Positions 846 to 63,873 are shown, counted from the stretch's first letter. The stretch is DNA of 64,000 bases from a virus (IMGVR_UViG_3300047550_002841:869-64868), one strand, 5' to 3'. Program-made: numbers and translations. The notes: generated from the letters alone by a model not told the origin.

Positions 846-1433
846 TTATGCAATATCCTTAGACTCAATCAAAGTATAAGTAAATGAGTTTCCTTGGGCT
901 TTAGCAGCTGCCTTACAAATTTTCATGAACTCATCGAAATCTTTTACACGCTTGAACACTTGGCAACCATGTGACCAATGATCAATCCAAGTTGAGTCCA
1001 ACCCTGCCTTATGAATATTGATTCCGTATATCCCTTCAGTGATTTTGGTTTCGTCATAAGTCATGTCTTTGTTAGCATCACGATACACCTTGATGTTAGC
1101 TTTTTGTTTCAAAGCTTCGTACTTACCTTGGTGCAACCCTACATGGTGTGAGCCGGGGTATTGACCGGGAACAACACGTGCAGTACCTGTACCATTGTTA
1201 CCTTCAGCCATGGGTGCTTTACCGGGATCAGTTGTAGCCAACCAAATAAAAAACTTCCATGCTCCGTTTTCCTTGTACGATAAAGTCAACCAATCATCAA
1301 ACTTATTGGTTACCTCTTTGCCGGGTGCACTATTTCTAATGCCAATGATGTTTAGGTTCAAATCTCCGTTCTCGAAATATTTGTAACCTTTAGCTTTAAC
1401 AGCTTTTTCTACTTGTTCTCTAGTGAAGCTCAT
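846..1433 (-). CDS. Putative endolysin, L,D-transpeptidase (YkuD)-like Cys/His hydrolase
   Basis: GINIHKAG...WSHGCQV matches the YkuD His...SxGC catalytic arrangement; late-gene context. Confidence 0.7.
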   Translation of the reverse strand: MSFTREQVEKAVKAKGYKYFENGDLNLNIIGIRNSAPGKEVTNKFDDWLTLSYKENGAWKFFIWLATTDPGKAPMAEGNNGTGTARVVPGQYPGSHHVGLHQGKYEALKQKANIKVYRDANKDMTYDETKITEGIYGINIHKAGLDSTWIDHWSHGCQVFKRVKDFDEFMKICKAAAKAQGNSFTYTLIESKDIA

Positions 1434-11600: not shown

Positions 11601-14600
11601 CTTCTTGCTTCTTCCAGTACTCGTGTTGTTCTGAAATAAGACTTGGTCCTTGTCTACTTGACCAGTTGCTTCAGCTTCTGGATCAATACCAAGATTTGCT
11701 TTTGCAACATTTTCAACATTTGCTTTTGAAACGATTCCATATTCTTTTGATTGTTTGTCGATGAATTCGGCAGTTTTGTCGTTAACTTCTACAAATTCGT
11801 CTGTAACTGAAGTTAAACCTTTTGCCTCTAGTTTTGTAGTTTCTGGGTTGTAACGGTAAACCACTTTATTATCTACCACTCCGTTTTTAGAGGATACATA
11901 AAACTCTTCTCCCAAATTACCTGCACGCTGCTCTACTTTTACTCCTTCTGTTCCAACACCGCTACTAGCAGAACTTGAAGTCGTAGTACTTGTATTGTCG
12001 TCTACTGGACCTGATGTCATCACTGGGTTAAATGCAAATGACGGTGCATTAGTTGCATTCGGAACCCCTGCCATAGCCATTGCCGGAGCAGTCACTACTT
12101 CAGGTTTTGTAGTATTGTTTTCGTCATAGTCAGAGTTCTTTATTGTCTGATCCAACAATTTGAGAATTTCCACATCTACCGCATCAACATCTTCTCCATA
12201 AACTCTGTCTAAGTAATCTTGAAAGTTTTGCCGAGTCTTAAATAGTACACCTAAGTTTTCTAAATTCAAAGATGAAAAACTCATACACATCAAGGCAGTA
12301 GCTCTTAGATTAAATAATCTTTCATCCTCTGTCTTACCGTATGCATTCTCAGTAGCTGCTACAATATCAAAACCATTTGCTTTGAACTCAGACCAAATAT
12401 TTGAAAAAGTCTCTTCAGTCATTGAAGCTGTGGCACCAGAAAAAGATCGACCCATTATAGTAGCCATCTTACCAATTAAGTTAGTTGGAATAAATCTACC
12501 TAGGTTCATTACTCCAGTTGCTTTATCGTACATCTGACTACCCACTTTTTCAGCAACTCCCATACCTCCATCTTGTCCTGCTAATTCATAAGCCATAAAG
12601 TCAACTCCATAATTGACTGCTGCTTTTTCAAATAGTGTAAATACCCCTACTCCGGTGCGGCCATATTTATTAGCCATGTAACTTCTTGCAGCTACTGCGG
12701 CTTCTCCTGTAAATAATGCCTTTGTGCTATTGGCTACAGGCTTACGCATTAATCCAATCTGAAGCGCCATCCCTAAAGAAGTAAGAAACCCTTTGCCAAG
12801 CTGTGAATCTTCATTCAGAGTTTTTAAAGATTCGACAACATCAGGATTAACATACATTCCTTGCTCTGTCAAGAAGTTAGCTACCGTTAATACTTCTTCG
12901 GCAGGTGTCTGAAACTCTTCCTGCTCTACTAAATTAACAGTATTTGTAACTACAGTACTCAGCATGTTATTAACAATGCCATCTGCTTTTACTTTGGTTA
13001 AATCTGCATTTGTATAAATTACTCTGTTCAAGGCTTTGATTTGTGCCTTCTTCTCAAGAATGCGAGAGTTTAGTTTATAAAGATATATTGCGTTTGCTTT
13101 CTGTTGGTCGCTTATAACTGTGGTAGCTTCAAAAGATGAAAATGGTACGGCAATAGCATATAACTTCTGCAAGAAATTACCATTCTCTGCAACTAAAGTT
13201 TTGTACTCCGCATCTAGTTCTTCTGCGTTATAGTTCTCAGGCAAAACGACTTTCTTAGTCTGCATGTCCTTGAACCTTTGACTCATATAGTCCAACTGCT
13301 CATACAATACGTTTCGCTTTTCTTTGAGAATTGCTGCATCGGTTTTTTGTTCTGCCTGAGCTGTCTGTGTATAAACCTTAACAACCTTTTGCTGTTCTCT
13401 TCCCTCTAAACGATTTCCAAACGCATCGAAGAATTCTTCTTTCGGCAATGCATTCACGCCAAAAAATCCAACTTCTTGTTTTCGTTGACTGATCTGAGCT
13501 TTGAGTGATTGCAACTGTTTGAGTTTGTCTGCAGGAAGTTTTACTTGGTTTTTACCTTTAACTTTGACCCCAGACTTATAAATTTCTTGCACTTGTTCGT
13601 ACAAGGCAGCGATTTCTCTTTCTTCTTTTGTTAATTCTGCTTGTGCTCTATTTTCTTTTATTTGATCATAGTTGGATATCAACTGACCTTTTTCATTCTT
13701 GATAAAGCCTGCTTTCTTACGTTTATCTTGGTAGGTTTTGTCTACCATGTTGTTCAGATACTTTGACTTATACTCTTCAAGAATCTCTGATACTTCAAAA
13801 TCATCTAGGTTGTTTCTTCGTAGAATATTTTCAAACTCGTCACGATCTAACTTTTTAAATGAACCTCGATAATTAGGATCTTGATAATCAAATGAAATAT
13901 TATTACCTAACTCAGCTTCAAAAAGCATCTTACCGATTTGTTCTTCATTCAACGCTGGAACAGAAGATGAACGATCATTTTCATCAAATACTGTTGCAGC
14001 CTTATTCAAGAACTCGGTGCCCATGTCTTTTTCAGCATTTGACCTCCGAATCTCTTTCTGATCTTCGTATCTTGCTATGTCAATGCCAAGTTTACCCTTT
14101 TCATAATAACTGCCTGCAAACAAATCTTGTGCACTTGTAAAGCCTAGTTCATTCAGCTTTTTCTTGTGAACTCGGCCATAAGAATCTCTGTTGATCGGAT
14201 CTTTCAAGTATTCGTAAAAATCAGCCGCATTATCAATTGGTTGGCCATACGCATCAACATTTAAGTTGTTTTCACGAAGCGTGTTAAAGTTTCTGTCAGC
14301 TGCAATTCTCTTCTGCACTGACCCAAACTTTTCAGCTACTGGATCAGGAGCAAATTGGTCTAAACTTGTACTGTATCTCGGTGCGTTTGCTGCTAGAAAA
14401 GGTTTATTAAATCTAGGATCATATACACTTACTGCATCTTGGTTAGTATATACACTTTTTTCGTATTGAGTAAGACCGCCTTGAAGTTTATCTGTAAGTT
14501 CTTTCGCACTTGCAATTTTAAAGTATTGAGCTAATTGACCTCGATTAGCCAGAAAAAATTGATCTAGATTATATGGGTCCTGCAAGGCTTGACCTAACTC

Positions 14601-23141: not shown

Positions 23142-23798
23142 TTAATTTTGTTTATTTGGAACAGTGTCTAACGAATCAGATATTACATCGGCTGTACGAA
23201 CCATCTTACGCATGAGTTCTACACTAATCTGCTCAACAATGTCATTCTCCATAGCCGCATCAATCGGATATTGATCGATGTCGGTACGATAGTTTGGAAC
23301 TTCGGTTGGATCGTTAAATAACGCTTTTACCAATAACTTTCTAAACTTGGGGTTTTTATAAATATGAATATAGAATTTGCCATCATAATCTGCTTGGTAA
23401 TCCCATACGATTCCTTTTTCCTTTTGAAACATTGAATGCATAGATAATGCAGTGTAGTTTGAACGAATCCGCATAAAAGGCTTTTGTGCATTCACATGAC
23501 CAACATAAATAAAACCATCATGACGATCATCCAATCTTATTACAGTCGGGCATGGAAACTTAACGACATCGCAACCTGCTTCAACTTGAGCTTCCAATAA
23601 TTCAACACTATAGGCTTGTACACACGCTTCGTTAATGCGATCACTCAACGATTGCTTAGTCAGTGCAGATAGTATAGATGCTCGAGCAGTATGTATTTTT
23701 GACTCGATATATGGTTCATCAAAGCGTGTTTCGTCAGTCGTATTTCCCCCACCAATATTAGATAGGATTCTATGTACTATTTCTCGTAGAGTACTCAT
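23142..23798 (-). CDS. Head-tail ring/adaptor protein
   Basis: MSTLREIV...KALFNDPTEV...YPID pattern of crAss-like ring proteins. Confidence 0.6.
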   Translation of the reverse strand: MSTLREIVHRILSNIGGGNTTDETRFDEPYIESKIHTARASILSALTKQSLSDRINEACVQAYSVELLEAQVEAGCDVVKFPCPTVIRLDDRHDGFIYVGHVNAQKPFMRIRSNYTALSMHSMFQKEKGIVWDYQADYDGKFYIHIYKNPKFRKLLVKALFNDPTEVPNYRTDIDQYPIDAAMENDIVEQISVELMRKMVRTADVISDSLDTVPNKQN

Positions 23799-27006: not shown

Positions 27007-28368
27007 TTAAGCGATTAATTCAACCAATCCGCAACGCTCAGCAGCGCAATACAGACCGCAATCAGAAAGAATGTGGAAATCCACACCATCAACATCGCTT
27101 GAAGCCATAGATCCGCTCATTCCGTTAGCAATTACTTGCTTCAAAGAAGAAGGATTAGAATCTTGCAAGCCGATCATACCGGGGACGTAAGCTGCCAACA
27201 TTTCATCATTGTTGAAGTGATACTTCTGCAAAGGAGAAATAGTTCCGCTACCATCAGCAGCAGGGATTGGAGTCAAATCCAATACATACATGCTGTGAGA
27301 CTGACGAGGCTTACCAGTAACACCAGACAAATCGCCTTTGAATGCATCGTCATCCAACAATGCCCAACGAACGAAGTCAATTTTGATACCAGCATAGCTG
27401 TAAGTCATTACATTCAAACCTTCAACTGATACACCACCCAAAGTGTTGGTATTACCAGCGTACTGAATGTAAGCAGACAACAAAGTTTGCAAACGAGCCA
27501 TCATAGCAGTACCCATCAAAGCGACAAGGTTACGACCATTTTCAGCACTCTTACGAACCAAAGTTTCCAAGAAATCATTAAACTGAGTTTGAGTGATTTC
27601 AGCAGTCAAAGGCAAGTATACACCGCCATTGTTGATGATAGACCAACGCAAACCAGCAGTAGTGTATGATTCACCTTGAGGACCGCTGATGATAGCACGC
27701 TCAGAGAATGCATATTTGAATTCCAAACTCTTAGAGAATTTACGGAGAGTCAAATCATCATATGAACGGTACCAGAAATCACCCTGCCACTTAACGAAAG
27801 AAGAAGCACGATCTCTACGAGCTTGGCTTGAGCTTTCACGAGTGATAGCAGTGTAAGTGTAATCAGTTTGTGGAACAAAGTTCAAAGGAGTTTTACCATT
27901 GCTGTAGCGGTTAGCAGAAGAGTCAAACAATACTTTTGCCATACTACCAGCCAAGAAGTGGGTAGCAGTAGCGAAAGTGGTGCTCACTCGCTTAACAATG
28001 ATCAAGTTTCCACCGCCAGAAGGCTTGTCAACGATGATACCTTGTACCATGTTGTTATCAGCAATAATATCACCGACACGGAAGTTAGATGCATCATCAA
28101 GAGTAACCTGCAAAGCTTCACCAGTGGCATAGCCAGTTGGAGTGGTAGAAGCAGCAGCCACACGAGAATAAACAGAAAGATTTCCAAGTGCACTGATTTC
28201 TACTTTAGGCTGAGGGCTTGAAATAGAAGCAGACAATTTGGAAGTCAACTGAGTCAAAACATTGTACCCATAATCTTGGGCGTAAACCATAGCCATTTTA
28301 TTAGGCAGGCTCAACCCCCTAAGGAGGAGCGACTGGTTTAAATCGAGGTTAGTAACTGGACTTGCCAT
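27007..28368 (-). CDS. Major capsid protein
   Basis: 453 aa in portal-scaffold-MCP order; strongly biased codon usage; LEFKYAFSER...TTAGLRWSI segment consistent with HK97-fold MCPs. Confidence 0.8.
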   Translation of the reverse strand: MASPVTNLDLNQSLLLRGLSLPNKMAMVYAQDYGYNVLTQLTSKLSASISSPQPKVEISALGNLSVYSRVAAASTTPTGYATGEALQVTLDDASNFRVGDIIADNNMVQGIIVDKPSGGGNLIIVKRVSTTFATATHFLAGSMAKVLFDSSANRYSNGKTPLNFVPQTDYTYTAITRESSSQARRDRASSFVKWQGDFWYRSYDDLTLRKFSKSLEFKYAFSERAIISGPQGESYTTAGLRWSIINNGGVYLPLTAEITQTQFNDFLETLVRKSAENGRNLVALMGTAMMARLQTLLSAYIQYAGNTNTLGGVSVEGLNVMTYSYAGIKIDFVRWALLDDDAFKGDLSGVTGKPRQSHSMYVLDLTPIPAADGSGTISPLQKYHFNNDEMLAAYVPGMIGLQDSNPSSLKQVIANGMSGSMASSDVDGVDFHILSDCGLYCAAERCGLVELIA

Positions 28369-29423: not shown

Positions 29424-31655
29424 TTATTCTGGTACAGTAGCTTGTTCAGTTGGTTGTGCTTCTGCTGCCATTTCTTCAGATGGGGCAGCAGGTGCCTCTT
29501 CTACGGTAGGTTCTTCGTTTGCTTGAGCTGGCATGTTCTTCGCCATGTTACCAGCAACTTGCAACTCAGCTCTATAGTTGTTACCGTCTTGAGCCATTTG
29601 TGCTTGTTCCTTCTGCATGGCCATTTGTGCTTCCATCTGAGCAGCTTGCATCATCTGAGCTCTTTGTGCTTCTAGCTTACGCTCACGATCTTTTTTGTCC
29701 ATGGCATATTCAAGTTCTTTTAACAACTCAGTGTAGGTTTTTGCAGTTTCGATACGGATATAATCACGCATATCAATCATTTGATTCTGCATGGCCGCCT
29801 GTGCAATAGCCAATAGACGCTCACGAGCTGCTTCGTCAACGAAATCTTTGATCTTAATGTATACGCCAAAATCTTCAAACTGAAACTCTTCGGTCAATTC
29901 CAAGTATTCAATGCCTCGGTTATCAACCAAGCCAATGGTATCTGTTTCCAAATCCATTAACGAAATCTTGTATTGATTCAAAGAGTACTGTAGATCCTTT
30001 TCCAAAAATTGAATGAAGCCTTGATATAGGTAAGCGGTTCCCAAGTTAGATTGAGCAATTGTACCTGCCTGTGTCTTAGCCCCCAAGTAGCCAGCCTGTT
30101 GACCCATTGCGACCTTTGGTACGTTGACGATTTCTTCCATGATACGCTCTTCCTCACGTTTCAAAGCAATGATTTGTTGTACGTTAGGATCCAATGTCAT
30201 ATCAACAACTTCTACAACTTTATTGTAATCTGCGTTGTTGAAGTCTTCACCTGTCATGTTGCCATCGGTGATGTGAATCCCCATTCTTTGGAAATCGTTT
30301 AACACATCCTGTGCTGTAGCAGATCCCAATTTATGTTTATTTAAAATGAAGACTTTGCCTTTAGCACGGTCTGTCATTTTGGTAATCTCATGGTTAAGGT
30401 AATCGATTCGATCTTGGTGTTTATGCAAACGAGATGCGATAGATCGAGTTTCACCCATCACCATATTTGGCAAAAAGATTTGAATTGGCAACTGAACATC
30501 AGTAGGATCATCTGTTCTACGAACAATGTTATTTGCTTCTCCGTAATCAACTACATATTTATTGGCAATCAAGGTTCCTTTGTAGATTGTCTTTATAAAG
30601 TATTTTGAATTGGTACGTGTTCTCATTTTGGCAAAGTGTTCGTTGCCATATTGATCTTTCACTTGTTCGTATCTCAATTCTTTGTAGCCAACCCAATAAC
30701 CCGTAACGCATGCCATCTTTGGGACACCGCTATAGTTATACCACCAACGCAATTTGTTTGAGGTTATGTATTCCTCTCCCAACATTTTATCCATGGTCTG
30801 GGTATTTACTGTTTTGATTTCGTCAATCTCTTGGGGTGTCAGATGCTGAATAAATTCAGGCTTAGCAAGAATTTCACCGGGAGTAAGCCAATCAATCTTA
30901 CCGCAGTAGTGTGCTCTATTATTAAAGTCATCATCTACTGAGTTATCCCAGATCAAGTTATAAGGTAGAATGATTTCTTTAAACTGCCGTCCGTTCTTAA
31001 TTGAGTTCTCGATACCACAAACGCCACCCAACAATAGATACAAGAATGCTTGTTTGTATTTTTCAATAAACTTGTTTCTATGTAGAATATCTTCAGCAAG
31101 TCTTTGAGCGACAACTTCAGAATACTCCTTGTAGTCGTACATCATGAACTTCCGAAGATCCTCAGGCATTTCAAACTCATCCATGCCAGTAGGAGTAAAC
31201 TCAACTCCCTTCTGTGACATGATATCAAAAATCTCTTGGTACTTGATCTTCAGCATTCCAAGAGCCAGTATTTCATTCTTTTTAGAGACTAGGGCTTCAG
31301 ATGTAGCACGAACAGATGGTTCAATGTTTTCAATCATCTTAATCGCATTGCCAATCATAAAGTCAATCATTGAGGTCAACTTCTGTCCATTAATCCATAC
31401 ACTAGGCAGATCGCAGTTGTCTTCGTCTTTAGTCTTGTAGTAATAGTCTCGGTTTTCTTGTTTGCCAAGGTAGTAAGTGAACATGCGGAGCATTTCATCT
31501 ACAGGCTTTTCAAAAGTTGCTGTGCTTTGATACCCCAACATATTCTGCTGCGTATTGTATTTTTCTGCAACATACCGCAGCGAATCCATATACCACTTTA
31601 CATCTTTCTGTATCTCTGGTATAAACTGATTGGGTTGATCTCTTAAAGCAATCAT
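29424..31655 (-). CDS. Portal protein
   Basis: 743 aa; Q/M/A-rich C-terminal barrel helix and acidic tail; first gene of the head operon. Confidence 0.85.
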   Translation of the reverse strand: MIALRDQPNQFIPEIQKDVKWYMDSLRYVAEKYNTQQNMLGYQSTATFEKPVDEMLRMFTYYLGKQENRDYYYKTKDEDNCDLPSVWINGQKLTSMIDFMIGNAIKMIENIEPSVRATSEALVSKKNEILALGMLKIKYQEIFDIMSQKGVEFTPTGMDEFEMPEDLRKFMMYDYKEYSEVVAQRLAEDILHRNKFIEKYKQAFLYLLLGGVCGIENSIKNGRQFKEIILPYNLIWDNSVDDDFNNRAHYCGKIDWLTPGEILAKPEFIQHLTPQEIDEIKTVNTQTMDKMLGEEYITSNKLRWWYNYSGVPKMACVTGYWVGYKELRYEQVKDQYGNEHFAKMRTRTNSKYFIKTIYKGTLIANKYVVDYGEANNIVRRTDDPTDVQLPIQIFLPNMVMGETRSIASRLHKHQDRIDYLNHEITKMTDRAKGKVFILNKHKLGSATAQDVLNDFQRMGIHITDGNMTGEDFNNADYNKVVEVVDMTLDPNVQQIIALKREEERIMEEIVNVPKVAMGQQAGYLGAKTQAGTIAQSNLGTAYLYQGFIQFLEKDLQYSLNQYKISLMDLETDTIGLVDNRGIEYLELTEEFQFEDFGVYIKIKDFVDEAARERLLAIAQAAMQNQMIDMRDYIRIETAKTYTELLKELEYAMDKKDRERKLEAQRAQMMQAAQMEAQMAMQKEQAQMAQDGNNYRAELQVAGNMAKNMPAQANEEPTVEEAPAAPSEEMAAEAQPTEQATVPE

Positions 31656-48160: not shown

Positions 48161-48489
48161 CTCAACTTAAGATTAGAAAAAAGAATGTTGAAGTAATCAA
48201 CATTGTCTTGAGTAGTGAGCAGTACACAAAGTTAAAGAAGCTGGCTGATGAGAATGGTTTTTCATCGCCAGCTAATTTAATTGATGATATCGTTCACTCT
48301 TATTTTAATAAGCACCGAACTAGAATTCGCAAAACCGTGGAGGAGTACGAGAAATCCATTAAAATGCCAGTGCAGATATCACAGAATAACTGGCACATGC
48401 TATCACGCTACTCTGAATCTACCAAAATATCAAAGGGAACCTTTATACATTTAATACTACGAGAGATAATTAAAAAAATACCAAAATGA
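48157..48489 (+). CDS. Tandem ribbon-helix-helix DNA-binding protein
   Basis: Two strand-helix-helix units (INIVLSSEQYTKLKKLA..; MPVQISQNNWHMLSRYS..); coupled to the recombinase. Confidence 0.55.
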   Translation: MTQLKIRKKNVEVINIVLSSEQYTKLKKLADENGFSSPANLIDDIVHSYFNKHRTRIRKTVEEYEKSIKMPVQISQNNWHMLSRYSESTKISKGTFIHLILREIIKKIPK

Positions 48490-49175
48490 AACGAGCCGCT
48501 TTTTATACGCGTGTGAGCCACGACAATCAAGTCGAAGATGGATCATCATTAGAAAACCAAAAAGATCGCATAGAAGCGTTCTGTAAGCTAAATAACTACT
48601 CTATAGTAGCATCATTCTCTGACCCCGGAGTCTCTGGTCGTAAGTTTGAAAACAGACCAGAGTTTATGAAGATGATGAAACTCGTAGAGAAAAAACAAAT
48701 CGATGTAATTGTAGTCTATAGTCTATCTCGTTTCGGTAGAAACCTAAAGGATACTTTGAAATGGATATCTTTTCTAGAAAGTAAGGGCGTTTCGTTCTAC
48801 ACATTAGACTTTCAAATAGACACATCTACTTCTCATGGTAAACTTATGCTTCAGATGATGGGAGCCTTTGCTGAATTTGAAAGCAACCAGCGTGGGGAAT
48901 TGATTTCATCTGTGATGAAGTACCTGAAAAAAGAACAGAAAGTTTATTGCGGTCCTACACCTTTAGGGTTTCACAAGAAAAATGGATCTTTGATTGTGGA
49001 TGAAGAAGAAATGAAAATAGTTAAAACTATCTTCAGCTGGAAGAATACTATGCCACACTCTACCATTGCTAGACTTTGCAATGATATGGGGTTTCAGACC
49101 AAGAAAGGCAAGAAGTTCTATCACACCACCATTGATAAAATCGTAAACAATAATATCTATGAACAACATCTTTGA
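48486..49175 (+). CDS. Serine recombinase (resolvase/invertase catalytic domain with short C-terminal DNA-binding domain)
   Basis: YTRVS (catalytic Ser), D.GVSGR..NRP, SRFGRN and AEFE motifs; 229 aa, lacks the Zn-ribbon/coiled-coil of large serine integrases. Confidence 0.92.
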   Translation: MKRAAFYTRVSHDNQVEDGSSLENQKDRIEAFCKLNNYSIVASFSDPGVSGRKFENRPEFMKMMKLVEKKQIDVIVVYSLSRFGRNLKDTLKWISFLESKGVSFYTLDFQIDTSTSHGKLMLQMMGAFAEFESNQRGELISSVMKYLKKEQKVYCGPTPLGFHKKNGSLIVDEEEMKIVKTIFSWKNTMPHSTIARLCNDMGFQTKKGKKFYHTTIDKIVNNNIYEQHL

Positions 49176-56586: not shown

Positions 56587-56857
56587 TGTGCTTAATTAAC
56601 TTATCAAGATACCATTGTGCTTTTTTCAAGTCTTCTAAACCATTTTTATTTTCGCACCTCCAAATATACTTAATAATATTTGCTGTACAAACAGCATCTA
56701 AGCCAGTCTTATTGACTGTGGCTGATTCTATAGCGTCAATGCATTCGACTTTACCTTGAGTATAGTGAGTCGGGTGATTAACATTATCTTTTACTTCCTT
56801 CTGATGAACATCCCGATCATCAGACCCACTACCAAAATAATCCAAGTTATACTCCAT
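56555..56857 (-). CDS. DUF3310 (SaV-like) protein
   Basis: VNHPTHYTQGKVECIDAI...NIIKYIWR...KNGLEDLKKAQWYL. Confidence 0.9.
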   Translation of the reverse strand: MEYNLDYFGSGSDDRDVHQKEVKDNVNHPTHYTQGKVECIDAIESATVNKTGLDAVCTANIIKYIWRCENKNGLEDLKKAQWYLDKLIKHNEQKRNRTSI

Positions 56858-57216
56858 TTAGTTTCTTTTAATGTTACGATTCGTCCCGGTACTTTAACTT
56901 CACGATGTATTGTATCTCTCACAGTAAGAGTATCTGGTTTTACTGTTACCCCGAAAAAATCTCCACGCCTTTCAATAATCAAGCGTTCTGTTTCAATGAT
57001 AGTGTCGTGGCTAATAATAAAAGAATCCTTGTGCTCTGGCACCGGAACTTTTATTTCTCTGATAATCGTATCCTTTACTGTAACTGTATCAGTTTCAATA
57101 AGTTCTGGATGTTTCTTTATCAGCCTCTGATATCTTTTCTGAGCAGAACAACTCATCAACACCATTGTACAAACAATGGCTATCGCCACTGAACTACTCT
57201 TTAATGTCTTCGACAT
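56791..57216 (-). CDS. Lipoprotein, possible unimolecular spanin
   Basis: Lipobox-like VLMSC, repeated DT.T/DTI beta segments and a C-terminal TM helix. Confidence 0.55.
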   Translation of the reverse strand: MSKTLKSSSVAIAIVCTMVLMSCSAQKRYQRLIKKHPELIETDTVTVKDTIIREIKVPVPEHKDSFIISHDTIIETERLIIERRGDFFGVTVKPDTLTVRDTIHREVKVPGRIVTLKETKWSITWIILVVGLMIGMFIRRK

Positions 57217-57561: not shown

Positions 57562-57951
57562 TTACTTACGGAAAGGAACTACTTTTTTAGCAATACTCTT
57601 AGGTTGAGCCACAAACTGTTTACCCTTTGCGTTACCCTGTGCCTTTGCTTTATTAGTAGCTGCTTTCTCTCCTGAACTCAAAGATTTCCATGCCGCATCT
57701 GGCAGATATCTTTTTTTGCCTTTTGATGGCGTACCATCTGAAGTTCTCCACTTCTGATCACCCCACTTCTTCAAAGAATTATCTGAACTCTTTGGGCCTA
57801 CATATCCACCGCCAGATTTCTTATATCGCTGTGTGGCAAGCTGAGCTTTGCGAGCAGACCATTCCCCGGGGTCACCACCCTTACTGCCAGCTTTTACACT
57901 AGCAACAATGGCTTTCCATTTACTGGGATTGGTCTTTTTCGCAGTAGCCAT
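57562..57951 (-). CDS. Basic conserved protein (DUF5872-like)
   Basis: GGDPGEWSARKAQL...GGGY...RYLP...GKQFV motifs. Confidence 0.65.
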   Translation of the reverse strand: MATAKKTNPSKWKAIVASVKAGSKGGDPGEWSARKAQLATQRYKKSGGGYVGPKSSDNSLKKWGDQKWRTSDGTPSKGKKRYLPDAAWKSLSSGEKAATNKAKAQGNAKGKQFVAQPKSIAKKVVPFRK

Positions 57952-58100
57952 TACTTAGTAGATTTTCCCATTGAGGAGTTTTTACTAACCACTTTTTTTG
58001 TAACCTTAGTTAGTTTGCCAACAGGTTTCATTGTAACCTTAGTCAGTTTACCAACTGGCTTCATAGTGGATTTCATCGGGGTTGGTTTTTTGCCGTACAT
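57951..58100 (-). CDS. Small basic protein (49 aa) with tandem MKPVGKLTKVT repeat
   Basis: MYGKKPTPMKSTMKPVGKLTKVTMKPVGKLTKVTKK...; TATATTTG 6 nt upstream. Confidence 0.6.
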   Translation of the reverse strand: MYGKKPTPMKSTMKPVGKLTKVTMKPVGKLTKVTKKVVSKNSSMGKSTK

Positions 58101-58121
58101 GATATTCAAATATAATTATTT

Positions 58122-58268
58122 TTAACCTTGACCTCTATAAGCTTTCCGATAATTTTTACTAGATTTCAAAGAAGAATTCTTCTTTTTTGAAACTACTCCC
58201 GGACGCTTAATCTTTGGCTTGGGTTTCCACTTAGCCAGTTCTTTAGAGGATTTTACTTTGGCTGCCAT
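58122..58268 (-). CDS. Small basic protein (48 aa) ending YRGQG
   Basis: MAAKVKSSKELAKWKPKPKIKRPG...KAYRGQG. Confidence 0.65.
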   Translation of the reverse strand: MAAKVKSSKELAKWKPKPKIKRPGVVSKKKNSSLKSSKNYRKAYRGQG

Positions 58269-58699
58269 AAGTATAAACGAAAATAACCGAAATCTTCAGT
58301 ACCACCTTCTTCAACGTAATTCAAATACGCTTCGTAGATTGGACCTTTGAACTCTACTTGCTCAAAAGATGTATCAATACCTTTACTGATCATTTTTACT
58401 TGATACAGTTCCATCTTATCTTCCATCACGTTTACTACTTTGCTGATTGCTTCTACCTTCTCCTCAGCCTTTACTACTGCCTCTTTGAGTTCAGCCTTCT
58501 CTTCTACTTTTGTTTTTACCAGTTTCTCGCTAGTCTTCTGTGCTACTTTAGTGACTTCAGAAGCCATCGCCAAATTCTTTTGGACTTTCGCCAGCATCAT
58601 GTCGATCTCATCCACTGGAGGAGATGTCACCGCTCCAACTGGAAATGCTATTTCAATCATAATCAGAAAGACACAGCATACAACAATTAACGCTCTCAT
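58253..58699 (-). CDS. Membrane-anchored coiled-coil protein (spanin-like candidate)
   Basis: N-terminal hydrophobic helix followed by a long coiled coil. Confidence 0.5.
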   Translation of the reverse strand: MRALIVVCCVFLIMIEIAFPVGAVTSPPVDEIDMMLAKVQKNLAMASEVTKVAQKTSEKLVKTKVEEKAELKEAVVKAEEKVEAISKVVNVMEDKMELYQVKMISKGIDTSFEQVEFKGPIYEAYLNYVEEGGTEDFGYFRLYLWQPK

Positions 58700-58977
58700 A
58701 GCTTTTTAACTGTGTTGATAATTCTTAACTCCGTTATAGCTGCAGCAAGTGCACTATCACTTTTCTTTAAAGCAGCATTCATGCGATCAACTTTAATTTC
58801 CAAAGCCTTAATCTTTTCATTAGAGACTTGGATCTGATCCGCATAACCTGTTTTAACGTCATAATACAGATAGCTAACAGCCACCAACATACAAAAAGCC
58901 ACTGCAGCAACAGGATTCTTTTTGAATTGATCAAAAGAAACTGGCAGCGGATTCGTTTTAACTTTTGCAACAGCCAT
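58696..58977 (-). CDS. Single-TM coiled-coil protein (holin-like candidate)
   Basis: KNPVAAVAFCMLVAVSYLY TM segment plus coiled coil; TATTTTTG 5 nt upstream. Confidence 0.5.
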   Translation of the reverse strand: MAVAKVKTNPLPVSFDQFKKNPVAAVAFCMLVAVSYLYYDVKTGYADQIQVSNEKIKALEIKVDRMNAALKKSDSALAAAITELRIINTVKKL

Positions 58978-58995
58978 GATAACAAAAATACAAAA

Positions 58996-59313
58996 TTAAT
59001 TTTTATTTTTTTCATCTAAAAAATCTAGCAAACGAACTTTTTTTCTGTCTCGTTTTGCTTTCTCTGAGTCAGTTAGCGTAATTATCCCAAAGATCAACAA
59101 GGATAAAATGATAACAAAAAATGCTGGAACTACATAGTTTTGTGCTTCCGTATACCAATTGTATTCGGTATCCAATGGCTCAACAATACTTGACGTGACT
59201 TCATTGGTATCAATCTTATCACGATCATCGCGGTAACTCTTGAGCATTGCATCAGCCATGCTGTCTGCAGCTCGATTCATGCTGTCAATCCATTCTATAC
59301 TACCTCTTTTCAC
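58996..59313 (-). CDS. Single-TM membrane protein
   Basis: VVPAFFVIILSLLIFGIITL; overlaps the upstream gene by 14 nt. Confidence 0.55.
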   Translation of the reverse strand: MKRGSIEWIDSMNRAADSMADAMLKSYRDDRDKIDTNEVTSSIVEPLDTEYNWYTEAQNYVVPAFFVIILSLLIFGIITLTDSEKAKRDRKKVRLLDFLDEKNKN

Positions 59314-59848
59314 CTGATGCGTATTTAACTCCCATGATGGTTCCTATAATAGAAAATGAATTCGTCAACAATATACCAAACAGATTAGACCAAGTACTCT
59401 CTATAATCTTGGCATCCAACCCCTTGGATATAACGTAAAAGTACAAGAGAGATGTCAGAAATGCAACAGTTCCGATGATTCCTAACGCCACTTTAACAAT
59501 GAGCCCAACTAATTCAAACTGGGTTCTCTTCTGTAAGGTTTCTAAATCCTCTACCGCAGCATCTCGTAACTTAACAGACTCCGACAAAGCAACCTGTAGC
59601 TCGCCCATGAGCTTCTCTCTTTCTGCTTGGCTATCTATTAAATCCTTATTTTGTTGTTGGACTTGCTTGGTTATTTCTAATCGCTTCCTTCTAGTTTCGT
59701 TATCTCTTTGTTTTGCCTCATCTATGTATTGCTGAAACTCCTTATTTGTAGTCTTAATTACTTTCAGTAAGTTTCCCTCTAGTGCAACTTTTTTAGATTT
59801 GTACAGAGAGATTAAGTCGGACTCAATATCTTTACCAAAGGATATCAC
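59300..59848 (-). CDS. Coiled-coil protein with two C-terminal TM helices
   Basis: Long N-terminal coiled coil and two hydrophobic helices; 4-nt overlap with the receiver gene. Confidence 0.65.
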   Translation of the reverse strand: MISFGKDIESDLISLYKSKKVALEGNLLKVIKTTNKEFQQYIDEAKQRDNETRRKRLEITKQVQQQNKDLIDSQAEREKLMGELQVALSESVKLRDAAVEDLETLQKRTQFELVGLIVKVALGIIGTVAFLTSLLYFYVISKGLDAKIIESTWSNLFGILLTNSFSIIGTIMGVKYASGEKR

Positions 59849-60282
59849 TTATACACTTTAAAGGGAGCAGTTTTATTTTTATAGCCATCGTAGTCCTTAC
59901 GGAAAGCTTCTAAGCGTGGCTCAATCTCATCACTCTTAATAATCCAAAACTGTGCTCCAACCTTTTTAGCTTTCTCTATCTCTTGTTTATCATCAGACGA
60001 AGAGATGATACCTATGACTACACCGTTTCCGTATTCGCCATTGATCTTACGAATCAGCTCAATGCCATCAAAAGAAGAACCTATAATATTTAAATCTACG
60101 AATACACACTCGGGTTTATCTTCTTCTGGGCCCTCATCAAACCATTTTTTAAATAGGCGATCAGCTTCGTCAGAAGAAGTCAAACTTTGTAAACTTAGAG
60201 TTATATCTAAAAGACTGCAAGAATCTTCAAACACAAGATGAAACAAATCTTCATCGTCAACCAATAGTATAGAATCAATCAT
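59845..60282 (-). CDS. Single-domain response regulator (CheY-like receiver)
   Basis: ILLVDDE, phospho-acceptor FVDLN, DGIELI, ISSS and GA..WIIK. Confidence 0.92.
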   Translation of the reverse strand: MIDSILLVDDEDLFHLVFEDSCSLLDITLSLQSLTSSDEADRLFKKWFDEGPEEDKPECVFVDLNIIGSSFDGIELIRKINGEYGNGVVIGIISSSDDKQEIEKAKKVGAQFWIIKSDEIEPRLEAFRKDYDGYKNKTAPFKVYK

Positions 60283-61505
60283 AATCTTATTTTAATTTTT
60301 GTACCCACATCAAGTTTTTCTACCTCTATTTTGAAGTCATGTTCTTCCATAATAGCCGTACATATATTCAAACCTAAACCAGATCCGGCTTCTGCTTGAC
60401 CTTCTTTACGAATATATGGCTGAGACCATGTTTCAAAATCTTTCTGAGACATCCCTCTTCCGTTATCTTGGATAACAAAATAGTTATTTTCCACAAAGAT
60501 ATGGACTAATTTTGTTGCCGAATCGTTGTATTTTAAACCGTTTCGGATCAAATTATCCACTGCTGTACAGAATAAACTTTCATTGACTAAAATAGTGGGC
60601 ATATCATCTATAACCACTTGCTTTTCATATGATGTACTAGACAAATAAGATTGTAAAATTTCTTTTAAGTTGCACTCAGTCCTCTCTAACTGAGCATCTT
60701 TTTTTACCAGATTCGTAAACTCCTTAACCCCACGATACACCTTTTGTGTGTGTACCAAACCTTCCTCAATCATTCTTAGAGGTGCATCCACCTTCAATGT
60801 TTTAATTTGCTCCTGAGTCAATCTTCGTTTCAATGAACTCAAGCCTCTGGGTATGTACGTATTAATACCAGAGTGCATATCATGACGCAATATTTTTGCC
60901 GCATGCTCTAAGTAAGAATTCTTCTTTGCGATTTCAACCTCAATGTTCTTCTTAGCGGTTATATCTGTTGCTATCTTAAGCACCCTATATACCTCACCAT
61001 AAGGATCCATAATTGGGTTGTAGTTCCCGTAAATCCAAACTGCCTCACCTTTTTTATTTCTTCTTTTAAATTCACCTGAAACAGACCGTCCTGCTCTAAG
61101 ATTTCTCCATAAACTCACATGTTCCTCCTGCGAAAAATCATGAATTAAATCACGATGATTCATTTGCTTCAGTTCACTGTTGCGATACCCAGTGATGTCT
61201 GAAAATATATCATTAGCATTTAAAATACTCCCATCTGTATCTAGTTCTACTAATGCGTTAGATAAATTAATAGCCAGTAGCGTATCGTCAACTGACTGTG
61301 CTTTGTATTGTGCTTTTCTTACAAACTCAACTGCCCCTATAAAAAAGAAAGGTATGAATGCAATAATACATCCATACCCAAACTCTATAATTAATAACGA
61401 TGGTTTAAAATATCCAAATACTACTGCACTCTGAACCCCGAAGAAAGTCATCATGATTGCAATCGCAATCAATAGGGAGCACTTAGCCAGTAGTGATAGT
61501 TTCAC
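60279..61505 (-). CDS. Membrane PAS-domain sensor histidine kinase
   Basis: Two TM helices, PAS/PAC domain, H-box LRHDMHS, N-box NLIRNGLKY, G1 DNGRGM, G2 GSGLGL; GTG start. Confidence 0.93.
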   Translation of the reverse strand: MKLSLLAKCSLLIAIAIMMTFFGVQSAVVFGYFKPSLLIIEFGYGCIIAFIPFFFIGAVEFVRKAQYKAQSVDDTLLAINLSNALVELDTDGSILNANDIFSDITGYRNSELKQMNHRDLIHDFSQEEHVSLWRNLRAGRSVSGEFKRRNKKGEAVWIYGNYNPIMDPYGEVYRVLKIATDITAKKNIEVEIAKKNSYLEHAAKILRHDMHSGINTYIPRGLSSLKRRLTQEQIKTLKVDAPLRMIEEGLVHTQKVYRGVKEFTNLVKKDAQLERTECNLKEILQSYLSSTSYEKQVVIDDMPTILVNESLFCTAVDNLIRNGLKYNDSATKLVHIFVENNYFVIQDNGRGMSQKDFETWSQPYIRKEGQAEAGSGLGLNICTAIMEEHDFKIEVEKLDVGTKIKIRL

Positions 61506-61648
61506 TTTTTCGTTTTTTTAGACGCACTTATGGCAATAGCGATCACCTGCTTTTTACTCCGTGGGTTTTTACCTCCGGGCTTAGCGTACGCTTTGTTTTT
61601 CTTCATAAGCTCGCTAATATTTTTAGATACGCTTTTTCCTAGTGGCAT
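61502..61648 (-). CDS. Small basic protein (48 aa; QxIAIA motif, DUF6496-like)
   Basis: MPLGKSVSKNISELM...SKKQVIAIAISAS; GTGA overlap with the kinase start. Confidence 0.65.
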   Translation of the reverse strand: MPLGKSVSKNISELMKKNKAYAKPGGKNPRSKKQVIAIAISASKKTKK

Positions 61649-61806
61649 TACTTTTTCATTTTCATTTTAGATATTGAAGATCCAGCCATTTTACTTTTGA
61701 TGTTTGACTTGCTCTTAGCCATCTGCATTGCAGAATCTATTTTCTTTTTTTCGGACATGGCTGAGACTTTCTTCGCAGGTCCATACATTGGTTTTGGTTG
61801 TTTCAT
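61648..61806 (-). CDS. Small basic Lys/Met-rich protein (52 aa)
   Basis: MKQPKPMYGPAKK...KMKMKK; TAATG overlap. Confidence 0.6.
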   Translation of the reverse strand: MKQPKPMYGPAKKVSAMSEKKKIDSAMQMAKSKSNIKSKMAGSSISKMKMKK

Positions 61807-61811
61807 AGCCT

Positions 61812-61976
61812 TTATTTTTTCTTTTTCATTTTGCCGAACATCATCTTCTCTTTGGCTTCAACTTTCTTACCCTCTTTCTTTTCGTGCTTCATTTCAGCCT
61901 TTTTAGAAGTGTACTTTTCCATACCACCGTACTCAGAAATCTTCTTACCTACGGCTTTCTTTATTGGTTTTTTCAT
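61812..61976 (-). CDS. Small basic protein (54 aa)
   Basis: MKKPIKKAVGKKISEYGGMEKYTSKKAEMKHEKKEGKK... Confidence 0.65.
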   Translation of the reverse strand: MKKPIKKAVGKKISEYGGMEKYTSKKAEMKHEKKEGKKVEAKEKMMFGKMKKKK

Positions 61977-62362
61977 TTCTTTGTTGATTTCATCATTGGT
62001 TTCTTGGTAGCAACAGTCTTCTTAGATGGAGCAGCAGTTGCTTTCTTTGGTGCAGACTTAGTACCCTTTAGTCCACCGCTTTTTGCCTTATTGAATCTTT
62101 CCTTGGCTGTATCGTGATATGGGTTTCTCATCATACTATCCGCCTGCTTTCTTATTGTTCCTTGTAAGTCATATGGAAGACCCGCTTTGGTTTGAATAGT
62201 TTGATCACCTGATCTCAATGTTCTTGTGGGAGCACTAGTGAATTTTTTCACATTTGTATCAAATCGTTTTCCGATTGCTTCATATTGAGCAGAATCCTTT
62301 GCAGTATATGTTCTTTTCGGAGGACTTGGCTGCATTTTTTTGGTTGATTTCTTTATAGCCAT
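61973..62362 (-). CDS. Basic histone-H1-like-tailed protein
   Basis: 129 aa; Lys/Ala/Pro-rich termini. Confidence 0.6.
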   Translation of the reverse strand: MAIKKSTKKMQPSPPKRTYTAKDSAQYEAIGKRFDTNVKKFTSAPTRTLRSGDQTIQTKAGLPYDLQGTIRKQADSMMRNPYHDTAKERFNKAKSGGLKGTKSAPKKATAAPSKKTVATKKPMMKSTKK

Positions 62363-62366
62363 GATA

Positions 62367-62471
62367 TTATTTCTTTGGTTTATTTTTTGATACTTTCACC
62401 TTACCACTTGGCTTGGTGGGTTTTGAGTTGTTGTGTTCTAGCTTCTTAGCTACAAAATTACAGTTAAACAT
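62367..62471 (-). CDS. Small basic protein (34 aa)
   Basis: MFNCNFVAKKLEHNNSKPTKPSGKVKVSKNKPKK; TAATG overlap. Confidence 0.4.
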   Translation of the reverse strand: MFNCNFVAKKLEHNNSKPTKPSGKVKVSKNKPKK

Positions 62472-62767
62472 TAGCACTTCCATCTTTTACGAGCCTGCCT
62501 CAAACGTGAGTTTGGATCTGAAGCCGCCTTCGGGAACATTTTCATTTGACCAGCACTACGAGCACAAAATGATTTGCGTCTCTTCGCATCTGCACTACCT
62601 GCTTTCACTTCACCAGTGACAGCTGTCTTTAATTTAGATCCGGGGTTTGCTCTGCGATATGCAGCCACACCTTTAGCCGTCATACCTGCACCCTTCTTAG
62701 TGGGCAGGTAATTAGCATTTTTTCCTCTAGTGGTTTTCGGAATGGGATTATCCCTCTTGGTTGCCAT
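62471..62767 (-). CDS. Basic conserved phage protein (DUF6321-like)
   Basis: NPGSKLK...RRKSFCARS...DPNSRL...RWKC; likely start MATKRD. Confidence 0.7.
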   Translation of the reverse strand: MATKRDNPIPKTTRGKNANYLPTKKGAGMTAKGVAAYRRANPGSKLKTAVTGEVKAGSADAKRRKSFCARSAGQMKMFPKAASDPNSRLRQARKRWKC

Positions 62768-62984
62768 CTTTCTTCTTAAATATCTTATTGGCAGCTCCGA
62801 GGCCCAGAGCACCAAAAGCGAGTGCAGCCACTGCTTCTACCAAAATGGCAGATGGAGCCACATGCTCTTCTGAAAAAGAATTGTGATACATGGTCACACA
62901 CAACGCGATTGAACATAGAATGCCCACGAATCGATTCGCAGAAAATTTATCATGCTCATCTTTGAAAATTTGAAAGAATTTCAT
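62748..62984 (-). CDS. Two-TM holin-like protein
   Basis: 78 aa, two TM helices, basic C-terminus. Confidence 0.5.
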   Translation of the reverse strand: MKFFQIFKDEHDKFSANRFVGILCSIALCVTMYHNSFSEEHVAPSAILVEAVAALAFGALGLGAANKIFKKKDGNQEG

Positions 62985-63007: not shown

Positions 63008-63253
63008 TTAATTTTCCAATGGTGGAAATGGTGGTGTTACAACTTCAAACTCACTCGGTGTTCCAAGAACAGGGGTTAATGATTCATCGAAAACAATATA
63101 CCAAAATTGTGGTGTGTTCAATTCTGCAAACTGATAGTCCACCCAATTCTGCGTAACATCATCGGGCGAAACTGGGATGCCATAGTAAGCATCACACGCC
63201 TCACGAGCGTTGATTGCTTCTTGTTCGGTGTTATATTGGTAACCAATTGTCAT
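63008..63253 (-). CDS. Tail-fibre-associated small protein
   Basis: 81-aa acidic ORF (GYQYNTEQEA) downstream of the tail fibre and endonuclease. Confidence 0.55.
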   Translation of the reverse strand: MTIGYQYNTEQEAINAREACDAYYGIPVSPDDVTQNWVDYQFAELNTPQFWYIVFDESLTPVLGTPSEFEVVTPPFPPLEN

Positions 63254-63873
63254 AGTATTAAGTATTGTTTATTAGACTTTCTTTTTAAGCCCTGCAATGC
63301 AGTTTGATAATTAATGCAATATAGTGAAGCAAATTGCATAATGCTTTCATGAAACACTCCAGTATATAAATCAAGAACTTGTCTTGAAACACCGCTTTTT
63401 AACCCTCTTGCAGACTTCTCTTTGTTTTTTGGTATTCCCTTTTGGATAATACTCAAGTGTGTTTTTTGTTCTTCAGTCAAACTCCAATCTCTACCGCTTT
63501 CTCTTAGTTTTTTACGATGTTCGTCAGACAACTTTCTACCTTTATGCGCTTGTGCTATTTTTTGCTTATGTTCATCGCTAAACACTTGCCCCGAAGTTCC
63601 ATCGCCACCATCTGTTAAATTACAAAGAGTTCCAGTGCTTAAATTAATTCTTCCATATAATGATATGAATTCCTTCTCCTTAACCTTTGCTTCTTCAAAT
63701 GTAATATCGTCACACATAATCTGAACTTTGTAATCTGTCCTTGACACTATGCCTTTCCATATTTTGCTTCTATGGGATTTGGCCGTTGCTCTGTAATAAT
63801 GCTCATCACTTCCAATACCAATATAGAATGGTTGGTTTTTGTCTAATCTAATATGTCGGTAAACGTAAGCCAT
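63250..63873 (-). mobile_element. Free-standing GIY-YIG-like homing endonuclease with NUMOD3 repeats
   Basis: YVYRH...PFYIGIG, E..FI..YGR, NLTDGGDG; two S.EH..K NUMOD3-like repeats. Confidence 0.85.

Follow-up and report, generated by a model that had tools for sequence, protein, structure and literature searches.

An obligate kinase–receiver–membrane protein gene triad in uncultured aquatic phages, with a possible role in lysis

A gene triad carried by phages of unrelated backbones

The genome of an uncultured water phage (virus record IMGVR_UViG_3300047550_002841) carries a cassette in which a sensor histidine kinase, a stand-alone CheY-like receiver and a 182-aa coiled-coil membrane protein are encoded by three overlapping genes. 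The DNA analysed here, referred to as the window, comprises 64,000 bases (869-64868) of the 64,868-base record. We find that these three genes form an obligate triad, and that the triad occurs in phages whose backbones are unrelated. It may constitute a phage-autonomous, three-component signalling module that tunes lysis, a reading to which we give somewhat less than an even chance. Since the window covers nearly all of the ~64.9-kb record, there is no host flank around the cassette, and a first-pass annotation of this DNA, made by a model from the sequence, was right to consider the kinase-receiver pair as phage-borne. All of the open reading frames (ORFs) and overlaps that it had described are likewise present on the minus strand, including a 48-aa basic gene that overlaps the kinase start by 4 nt. 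The cassette, close to the end of a long minus-strand block, and its immediate neighbours are as follows:

61502-61648, minus strand: 48-aa Lys-rich basic ORF, not conserved at this position in other lineages
60279-61505, minus strand: sensor kinase, 408 aa, GTG start (Pfam and hydropathy)
59845-60282, minus strand: stand-alone CheY-like receiver, 145 aa (Pfam Response_reg)
59300-59848, minus strand: 182-aa coiled-coil membrane protein with two transmembrane segments (TMs) (hydropathy and structure model)
58996-59313, minus strand: 105-aa single-TM protein with a charged C-terminal tail (hydropathy, TM at 61-79)
58696-58977, minus strand: 93-aa protein with an N-terminal TM and a C-terminal coiled coil (topology only)
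58253-58699, minus strand: 148-aa protein with an N-terminal signal-like TM and a coiled coil (topology only)

Overlaps of 4 nt also join kinase to receiver, receiver to 182-aa gene and the 93-aa to the 148-aa gene; the 182- and 105-aa genes overlap by 14 nt, and the 105- and 93-aa ORFs lie 18 nt apart.

A scan of IMG/VR with the kinase matched at least 598 stretches, of which at least 593 were confirmed; the system is thus no rarity of this genome. The locus counts given below come from the best 80 of the at least 593 kinase matches, a sample biased to close relatives, in which the kinase is 56-89% and the receiver 76-96% identical to that of the window. Kinase and receiver are both present in 80 of these 80 loci. 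The 182-aa gene is found in 72, and the other eight contigs break off no more than ~100 nt past the receiver, which leaves 72 positive loci among 72 informative ones. In the reverse direction, an IMG/VR scan with the 182-aa protein matched 596 stretches (509 confirmed) and supplied 69 further loci, some of them from contigs already seen; the receiver lay upstream in all 66 loci with at least 600 nt of upstream sequence, and the kinase in all 56 with at least 2 kb. The 4-nt overlap itself recurs at 62 of 74 kinase-receiver junctions and at 49 of 70 receiver–182-aa junctions. The synteny check proposed by the first-pass annotation therefore came out in its favour, with the membrane gene linked in every informative locus.

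Kinase and receiver are very probably a working pair. Phosphotransfer between them is indirectly backed by the adjacency of the receiver in 80 of 80 loci and by rare kinase-receiver fusions, which account for three of the five longer receiver relatives. These fusions (P0279, P0280 and P0281; 377-580 aa, one of them on a 190-kb contig) combine a HATPase_c kinase with a receiver 74-77% identical to that of the window. With obligate synteny as the basis, we are nearly as confident that the 182-aa protein would belong to the same pathway.

The carriers differ widely in their virion genes. Two of them, of 116 kb (CheckV 98% complete) and 53 kb (90%), have no detectable relative of the window's portal; its terminase-like ORF is absent from the 53-kb carrier and has a weak partial match in the 116-kb one (E 2e-5, 29% identity, residues 266-392). 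A 68-kb carrier has both the portal and the terminase-like ORF, at 72-73% identity to those of the window, and further carrier contigs are 126, 184 and 237 kb long. Among 50,697 GenBank phage records the receiver and the 182-aa protein found no match, and the kinase gave partial, weak matches in 10 records.

Cellular copies of the triad are very scarce. The two most conserved kinase peptides were compared with 185,579 prokaryote genomes, each from a different species, and eight loci were confirmed, all in metagenome-assembled genomes (MAGs). The receiver stands beside the kinase in all eight, seven also have the 182-aa gene, and most of the eight look like binned phage DNA. In the contig L085 (89 kb, binned as Bdellovibrionota) the triad lies by ORFs that by eye resemble PrkA, SpoVR and YeaH/DUF444, along with a Nudix hydrolase and a DNA methylase; this contig looks like a large phage rather than a cell. 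L084, a 967-kb Bacteroidetes MAG contig, has at ~4831-8231 a kinase with repeated near-identical PAS modules spread over two frames, in the company of cellular neighbours and of a 63%-identical stand-alone receiver; it has no 182-aa gene and no prophage genes in 13.8 kb. The L084 pair may be a cellular source or sink of the viral pair. The receiver was absent at E <= 1e-25 from 400 further genomes of the same phylum, so that 1 of 401 matched overall. A HMMER search also found many multi-PAS kinases, some of them on long contigs, that share the kinase core at 53-67% identity. The kinase core consequently has cellular kin, yet the triad is viral.

These data bear on the possibility that the cassette consists of host two-component genes, recently captured and now drifting without function. 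The 53-67% identity of the multi-PAS kinase cores on long contigs is in keeping with such an origin, but the pattern of selection is not. Against L001-L003, the closest relatives, the kinase has a dN/dS of 0.06, the receiver one of 0.013 and the 182-aa gene one of 0.07. Synonymous sites are almost saturated in these comparisons, which implies constraint on the proteins rather than on the DNA. Relaxed selection, named in the first-pass annotation as a sign of recent capture, is therefore not what is seen; at 0.01-0.07, selection is strongly purifying on all three genes. Moreover, there are hundreds of diverged viral copies with unchanged gene order and close cellular copies are nearly absent. 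Drift after capture is contradicted by the dN/dS values and by the linkage of the triad in both directions, and we find it hardly credible.

The cassette could also serve a temperate phage as a sensor for the lysis-lysogeny decision or for induction. The window does encode a serine recombinase of the Resolvase type (48486-49175, plus strand; Resolvase E 8e-42 plus a Recombinase domain), possibly an integrase or an invertase, and the kinase-receiver pair of L084 sits in a long Bacteroidetes contig. The cassette, however, lies with the structural and lysis genes on their strand and well away from the recombinase, none of its neighbours looked like a repressor, and the L084 copy has cellular rather than prophage surroundings and lacks the 182-aa gene. 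We consider the chances of this explanation to be slim.

A kinase with a nearly fixed membrane anchor and a variable sensor

The kinase had been described as an intact TM-TM-PAS-HisKA-HATPase protein. Its two TMs (11-29 and 38-56 by hydropathy, with a loop of ~8 aa between them), its PAS domain (~80-190; PAS_3 E 3.9e-13, residues 95-178) and its ATPase domain (HATPase_c E 9.8e-13, residues 311-408) were all recovered, but the HisKA label was not: in Pfam none of HisKA, HisKA_2, HisKA_3 and HWE matches either the whole kinase or residues 186-290 at E <= 10, and residues 186-290 found no kinase in the PDB, all three matches having E >= 0.34. Between PAS and HATPase_c lies a His-bearing, dimerisation-like segment (~195-300) that is conserved more strongly than any other part of the protein (mean top-residue frequency 0.81 in 96 sequences); the mean column identity of the kinase is ~63%. 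Three histidines of this segment, H201, H208 and H211, are invariant. We infer that one of them takes the phosphate, and H208, which lies 114 residues before Asn322, the usual N-box spacing, is a candidate. The boxes of the HATPase_c domain are kept in alignments of 25 and 96 sequences: N322 (N box), DNGRGM (G1) and GSGLGLN (G2). Judged by its sequence, the phosphoacceptor/dimerisation segment appears to be family-specific and unclassified.

The input side of the kinase was surveyed in 95 distinct complete kinase ORFs drawn from 149 loci. The majority (74) are of ~400-420 aa and have a single PAS domain. Fourteen are shorter (293-316 aa), with the hairpin joined straight to the His segment and no cytoplasmic sensor at all, HATPase_c being the one domain detected in the five tested against Pfam. 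The remaining seven are of ~590-600 aa, and Pfam recognised GAF plus PAS in the two that were tested. The N-terminal two-TM hairpin was seen in each of the 14 kinase ORFs inspected, and a few of its positions are at least 90% conserved. The cytoplasmic sensor is hence variable (none, PAS or GAF+PAS), whereas the two-TM anchor, the kinase core and the receiver are nearly fixed; the PAS of the window phage is a lineage-specific added input, not the core sensor.

The resemblance of this PAS to that of the chemoreceptor Aer stood up at the level of a sequence match. Its best matches in the PDB are 3ewk ('Sensor protein', E 1.1e-13), which we take to be flavin-binding, and the Aer PAS 8dik (E 1.2e-8). 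The flavin-contacting segment appears not to be conserved. In Aer the contacts are presumably made by the R57/H58/D60 region; its R-H-P-D aligns to I-H-(gap)-D in the window PAS, and the corresponding segment varies among family members, with shortened versions in L028 and L040. Since the PAS is dispensable (14 of the 95 kinases have no cytoplasmic sensor and seven have GAF+PAS instead of PAS alone) and the Aer-motif segment is variable or partly deleted, the proposed flavin/FAD-based sensing of redox state or oxygen is not supported. A light sensor of the LOV type was dropped as a candidate, the flavin-binding Cys motif not being seen on inspection by eye.

Envelope state, which had been suggested in the same breath as redox state, fits better, because the conserved N-terminus of the kinase is a two-TM hairpin with a very short loop. 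Intramembrane-sensing kinases, of the LiaFSR and BceRS-AB types, usually work with an accessory membrane protein. The phage system resembles them in the input of its kinase, a pair of TMs joined by a very short outside loop, and in the constant presence of a gene for a dedicated membrane protein next to the pair. Such kinases have no other input domain, which is true of the 14 relatives for which the hairpin is the sole input; the window kinase differs in having a PAS in addition. The phage receiver also has no output domain, the putative accessory is virus-only and there is no HisKA match.

The hairpin is relevant to yet another explanation, by analogy with T4: the kinase might detect perturbation of the envelope by a second phage or by a host defence, and trigger exclusion or lysis inhibition. 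The minimal-loop hairpin is the sole input kept across the 95 unique kinases (14 of 14 inspected), the gene of the membrane partner is obligate and the location is among lysis genes, all of which would suit a superinfection or inter-phage conflict sensor. On the other hand, the kinase has no periplasmic sensing domain, and to judge from the gene order the cassette is probably expressed with the late operon, unlike exclusion genes, which tend to be early. Scans of Pfam, PHROG and NCBIfam named no defence or anti-defence family, PADLOC not being among the resources searched. On balance such a sensor seems to us quite improbable.

The receiver and the 182-aa membrane protein

The description of the receiver as a stand-alone CheY-like protein with all of its key residues holds in full. 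It matches Response_reg (PF00072) with E 3.1e-8 and 34.2 bits, above the 30.2-bit cut-off, and the active-site residues D9, D10, D63, S94-96 and K116 are invariant in 49 sequences. Of its 145 aa only a conserved C-terminal tail of ~20 aa lies beyond the fold, and no output domain was seen among the five longer relatives, in which the sole recognised extra domain is the kinase of the fusions. The closest natural solved structures are weak matches, 4zyl (an RphyB protein, E 8e-4) and 3ilh (a two-component response regulator, E 1e-3). The phage receiver shares with these a CheY-like fold signature, the acidic pocket, a DLN..DG acceptor loop, the Ser/Thr and Lys residues and the lack of an output domain, and its active-site residues align with the corresponding ones of 4zyl. 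It differs from them by a two-residue insertion after the acceptor Asp and by its conserved tail.

The receiver is also the most conserved gene of the cassette, with a mean column identity of 88% in 49 distinct sequences as against ~63% for the kinase and 60% for the 182-aa protein. Such extreme conservation suggests that it has at least one further, highly conserved partner, possibly a host protein.

The 182-aa protein is predicted to have a C-terminal hairpin of two TMs (113-131 and 156-174 by hydropathy) with basic flanks. In the structure model (pLDDT 81), short N-terminal helices precede a long helix (36-142) that becomes the first TM, followed by a tight turn and the second TM. This second TM is nearly invariant and is polar and Gly-rich, and parts of the coiled coil are invariant as well. 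No family of Pfam, PHROG or NCBIfam matches the protein. A fold search with the model retrieved generic helical hairpins alone, at Z scores of 8.6-9.8 that are usual for long helices, and the protein-atlas clusters of the family are 100% viral. The 182-aa protein thus appears, from these comparisons, to represent a new, virus-only family. Two C-terminal TMs with basic flanks fit the topology of a holin, but a 110-aa cytoplasmic coiled coil is atypical of one. Action of the receiver through the 182-aa protein, in line with the first-pass proposal of an output by way of the adjacent membrane protein, is not supported. A complex prediction for the receiver with residues 1-112 scored 0.46 and its control 0.57, a result that weighs neither way on binding. 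In four loci (L070, L071, L073 and L075) the receiver and the 182-aa homologue are separated by an additional multi-TM ORF of ~163 aa, for which no Pfam family scored above its cut-off.

Lysis genes in the neighbourhood

To describe the surroundings of the cassette, 1134 same-strand ORFs within 5 kb of it were clustered, from 79 loci and the window (80 sequences). An endolysin or holin supported by homology lies within 5 kb in 39 of the 80, and within 1 kb in 35 of those. Twenty-eight sequences extend for 2 kb or more to each side of the cassette; 15 of them have a lysis gene supported by homology, a number that rises to 25 when holin- and spanin-like genes recognised by topology alone are counted. 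The endolysins belong to four types, according to lineage: YkuD-fold, Amidase_2 (in L058 and a cluster of four), Peptidase_M15_3 (a cluster of five) and DUF5675 (a cluster of six). A Phage_holin_4_1-like protein occurs in 20 loci, as a weak match (E 2e-4, 21.7 bits against a 22.2-bit cut-off). Small two-TM proteins and u-spanin-like lipoproteins with a C-terminal TM, classified by topology only, also recur near the cassette. A compact arrangement is that of L058, in which an Amidase_2 endolysin, a two-TM protein, a small TM protein, the kinase, the receiver, the 182- and 105-aa homologues and a u-spanin-like protein follow one another with gaps or overlaps of no more than 28 nt.

In the window the candidate lysis genes outside the cassette block are the following:

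62748-62984, minus strand: 78-aa two-TM holin-like protein, upstream of the cassette (topology; no profile match)
56791-57216, minus strand: 141-aa u-spanin-like protein, with a lipoprotein-type signal and Cys, a strand-rich middle and a C-terminal TM (no profile match)
846-1433, minus strand: 195-aa endolysin-like protein of YkuD fold, ~4.2 kb upstream of the kinase across the genome ends

The last of these is 74% identical to an endolysin-like family (phrog_33083, E 5e-13) found in 12 loci. Its model has a pTM of 0.79, and the top 19 of 38 fold matches are all L,D-transpeptidases/carboxypeptidases of the YkuD type (Z 3.8-5.8); it has an invariant His...Ser-x-Gly-Cys motif and no Pfam family. 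By eye, a similar His...Gly-Cys motif is present in the DUF5675 proteins of other carrier phages. Relatives of the 78-aa protein (clusters C28 and C24) stand beside endolysins in other loci. For the 141-aa protein, read from its sequence, the Cys after the hydrophobic signal is kept in six of six unique sequences, and the C-terminal TM is present.

The 93- and 148-aa ORFs, at first called holin-like and spanin-like, have the topology that these names imply but no significant Pfam or PHROGs family. The 93-aa gene is always found together with the 148-aa gene, and relatives of the latter in other lineages lie directly upstream of the endolysin-like gene. The position after the 182-aa gene is taken in many lineages by a small one-TM protein (30 loci in cluster C3, seven in C33). 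Read around the circle, the order in the window is: endolysin-like gene, tail-fibre-like gene, genome ends, a 207-aa ORF, an 81-aa ORF, the 78-aa two-TM protein, five Lys-rich ORFs, the cassette, the 105-, 93- and 148-aa membrane proteins, three Lys-rich ORFs, an 83-aa ORF, the u-spanin-like gene and the terminase-like ORF.

In nine loci (L040, L041, L046-L048, L051, L055, L056 and L028) the cassette is directly followed by a gene for Endonuclease_NS, a secreted, non-specific DNA/RNA endonuclease (E 2e-23).

Possible function and the case against it

The start/stop chaining of the triad to small membrane proteins, together with its place in or beside endolysin-holin-spanin blocks in several unrelated lineages, makes the tuning of lysis its likeliest job. 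We advance lysis control as the output of the cassette tentatively, at somewhat less than even chances; the link to membrane and lysis genes drawn in the first-pass annotation is plausible, as lysis genes are frequent neighbours in several lineages, but that neighbourhood is not universal. The following scheme can be envisaged. The kinase would be anchored in the inner membrane by its hairpin, with almost no periplasmic loop, and would autophosphorylate on an invariant His of its unusual dimerisation segment, from which the phosphate would pass to Asp63 of the single-domain receiver. Two roles could be imagined for the 182-aa protein: that of the membrane-bound target on which the phosphorylated receiver acts, or that of a LiaF-like accessory giving the kinase information on the membrane. 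By one or the other route the cassette would adjust the timing or execution of lysis at the level of holin and antiholin, according to the state of the membrane or cytoplasm of the infected cell. A bolder generalisation, which we regard as doubtful, is that many uncultured aquatic phages of ~50 to >230 kb, probably of Bacteroidota, have acquired by horizontal spread an autonomous, lysis-gating phosphorelay, in which a membrane-reading kinase (with PAS or GAF reading the cytoplasm in some) signals through a CheY-like protein to a new class of coiled-coil, two-TM holin/antiholin-like proteins.

Several observations weigh against a role in lysis. No homology-supported lysis gene lies within 5 kb in 41 of the 80 sequences (many of them short contigs), and three of the 28 well-flanked loci have no lysis candidate of any kind. 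The endolysin-like gene of the window lies as far as ~4.2 kb from the cassette, and Lys-rich ORFs intervene between the cassette and the holin- and spanin-like genes. Neither the 182-aa nor the 105-aa protein matches a holin or antiholin family in Pfam or PHROGs. The region is absent from every sequencing run on record as RNA; two wastewater runs of uncertain kind contain one third of its words. The bias of the 80-locus sample to close relatives must be added to this list, as must the gradient of conservation within the triad, with its hint of a host partner for the receiver, and the fact that the ends of late operons, by the lysis genes, are known cargo hot spots in lambdoid phages. In five carrier records that have no nearby lysis gene, a search found neither Amidase_2 nor Peptidase_M15_3, a negative that carries no weight, four of these five records being only 4-15% complete.

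Part of this list leads directly to the main rival explanation, that the triad is late-expressed mobile cargo by which the phage reprograms the physiology of its host, with the receiver acting on a conserved host target, the lysis-gene site being merely permissive. The much stronger conservation of the receiver than of the kinase or the 182-aa protein would be understandable on these terms, as would the movement of the cassette among unrelated backbones, its non-lysis neighbours in some lineages (L054, L063 and L066) or the downstream Endonuclease_NS in nine loci, and the Lys-rich ORFs that separate it from the lysis-like genes of the window. Chance would nevertheless hardly have placed it time and again between holin-like and spanin-like genes, in the company of four non-orthologous types of endolysin according to lineage, and it is with genes for small membrane proteins that the cassette is start/stop-coupled. 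Close cellular proteins for the receiver to imitate are, moreover, very rare (one in 401 genomes of one phylum; eight loci in 185,579 species genomes, seven of them with the viral 182-aa gene). We judge the cargo explanation to be rather unlikely. Cross-talk with host signalling as the general function was dropped for the same scarcity of cellular counterparts.

If lysis tuning is indeed the function, the nearest functional analogue would be the staphylococcal LytSR system that controls LrgAB/CidAB. Its kinase is reported to respond to membrane electrical potential (PMC4830213), and in both systems a membrane-bound kinase and its regulator are linked to holin-like membrane proteins and cell lysis. 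The two systems differ in that LytS is a multi-spanning sensor and LytR a DNA-binding transcription regulator, whereas the phage kinase has two TMs and its receiver has no DNA-binding domain; in agreement, neither the LytS multi-TM sensor nor the LytTR output families of Pfam and NCBIfam match the kinase or the receiver. The phage system is also viral, and its link to lysis is one of gene neighbourhood alone. In T4, lysis inhibition is brought about by direct periplasmic protein contacts of the holin T and the antiholin RI. Like the cassette as we propose it, this is a phage device that retimes lysis on a signal through membrane proteins of the lysis cassette; T4, however, uses no phosphorelay, and no sequence or profile similarity of its proteins to the cassette was found in Pfam or PHROGs. 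A sensor histidine kinase in a phage genome is not without precedent either, the Clostridium difficile phage phiCDHM1 carrying agr genes that include one (PMC3901668). There the set is host-derived, concerns quorum sensing and is carried by one temperate myovirus, whereas here a kinase-receiver pair with a membrane partner is found in hundreds of uncultured phages. The phiCDHM1 set reportedly consists of agrB, agrD and agrC, which would leave that phage without a receiver of its own. A full-text literature search, with subscription journals and supplements outside its reach, returned no account of this family, nor of any phage lysis cassette that includes a kinase-receiver pair.

The timing of lysis is a central trait of phage life history, and to our knowledge it has so far been understood as the protein chemistry of holins and antiholins, not as the business of a sensory phosphorelay of the phage's own. 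Should the cassette control lysis, hundreds of environmental phages would share a new layer of decision making, one that passes between unrelated lineages. Failing that, the cassette would still be among the most widespread phage-borne signalling systems for which we found no description, with a seemingly unclassified phosphoacceptor domain and a receiver whose conservation points to an important target.

The source phage and its genome

Other features of the window to which we refer are these:

2628-15074, minus strand: 4148-aa ORF, no PHROG family at E <= 0.001
23142-23798: match to CrAss_Ring_2 (profile scan of window proteins)
27007-28368: weak match to Crass_capsid (profile scan)
29424-31655, virion-gene strand: portal
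63250-63873, minus strand: 207-aa ORF, N-terminus like a GIY-YIG homing endonuclease by eye, no Pfam family

From these profiles the source phage appears to be crAss-like (Crassvirales-related), with one hallmark above the cut-off (CrAss_Ring_2, 40.4 against 27 bits) and two below it (CrAss_Ring_1, 16.3 against 27 bits; Crass_capsid, 19.8 against 27 bits). The terminase-like ORF of the window has no family in Pfam or PHROGs. The strand that encodes the portal also carries a 1573-aa structural protein, the CrAss_Ring_2 protein, the Crass_capsid-like match and the 4148-aa ORF, giant virion proteins being typical of crAss-like phages. The opposite strand holds the replication genes (DNA polymerase, primase-helicase, a RecE-like exonuclease and the resolvase-type recombinase). 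No close relative exists among the 50,697 GenBank phage records, in which no DNA match was obtained either, and no tRNA was found in the window. Nearly identical DNA is present in 20 sequencing runs, three of which may be the source; the 13 studies concerned sampled freshwater, wastewater, estuaries and marine sites.

Shine-Dalgarno sequences are not enriched before the genes of the window (8 of 80 starts, against a background of 7.4%), and the leaders are A-rich and G-poor; leaders of this kind, without Shine-Dalgarno sequences, are typical of Bacteroidota and their phages. A scan for sigma-70 promoters gave a count below that of shuffled sequences, and the motif TAnnTTTG, which we assume to be the Bacteroidetes-type promoter motif, is not enriched overall (86 against 77 expected). 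Terminator-like sites are more numerous than expected (13 against 4.6), with none clearly bounding the cassette.

The cassette is flanked by two arrays of small Lys/Arg-rich ORFs (48-129 aa) on the minus strand, at 61502-62815 and 57562-58268. One of these ORFs is a DUF6321 protein and another matches phrog_14910/17747, and their order differs between close relatives. Finally, a 59%-identical copy of the 207-aa ORF is found in L054, on the opposite strand.

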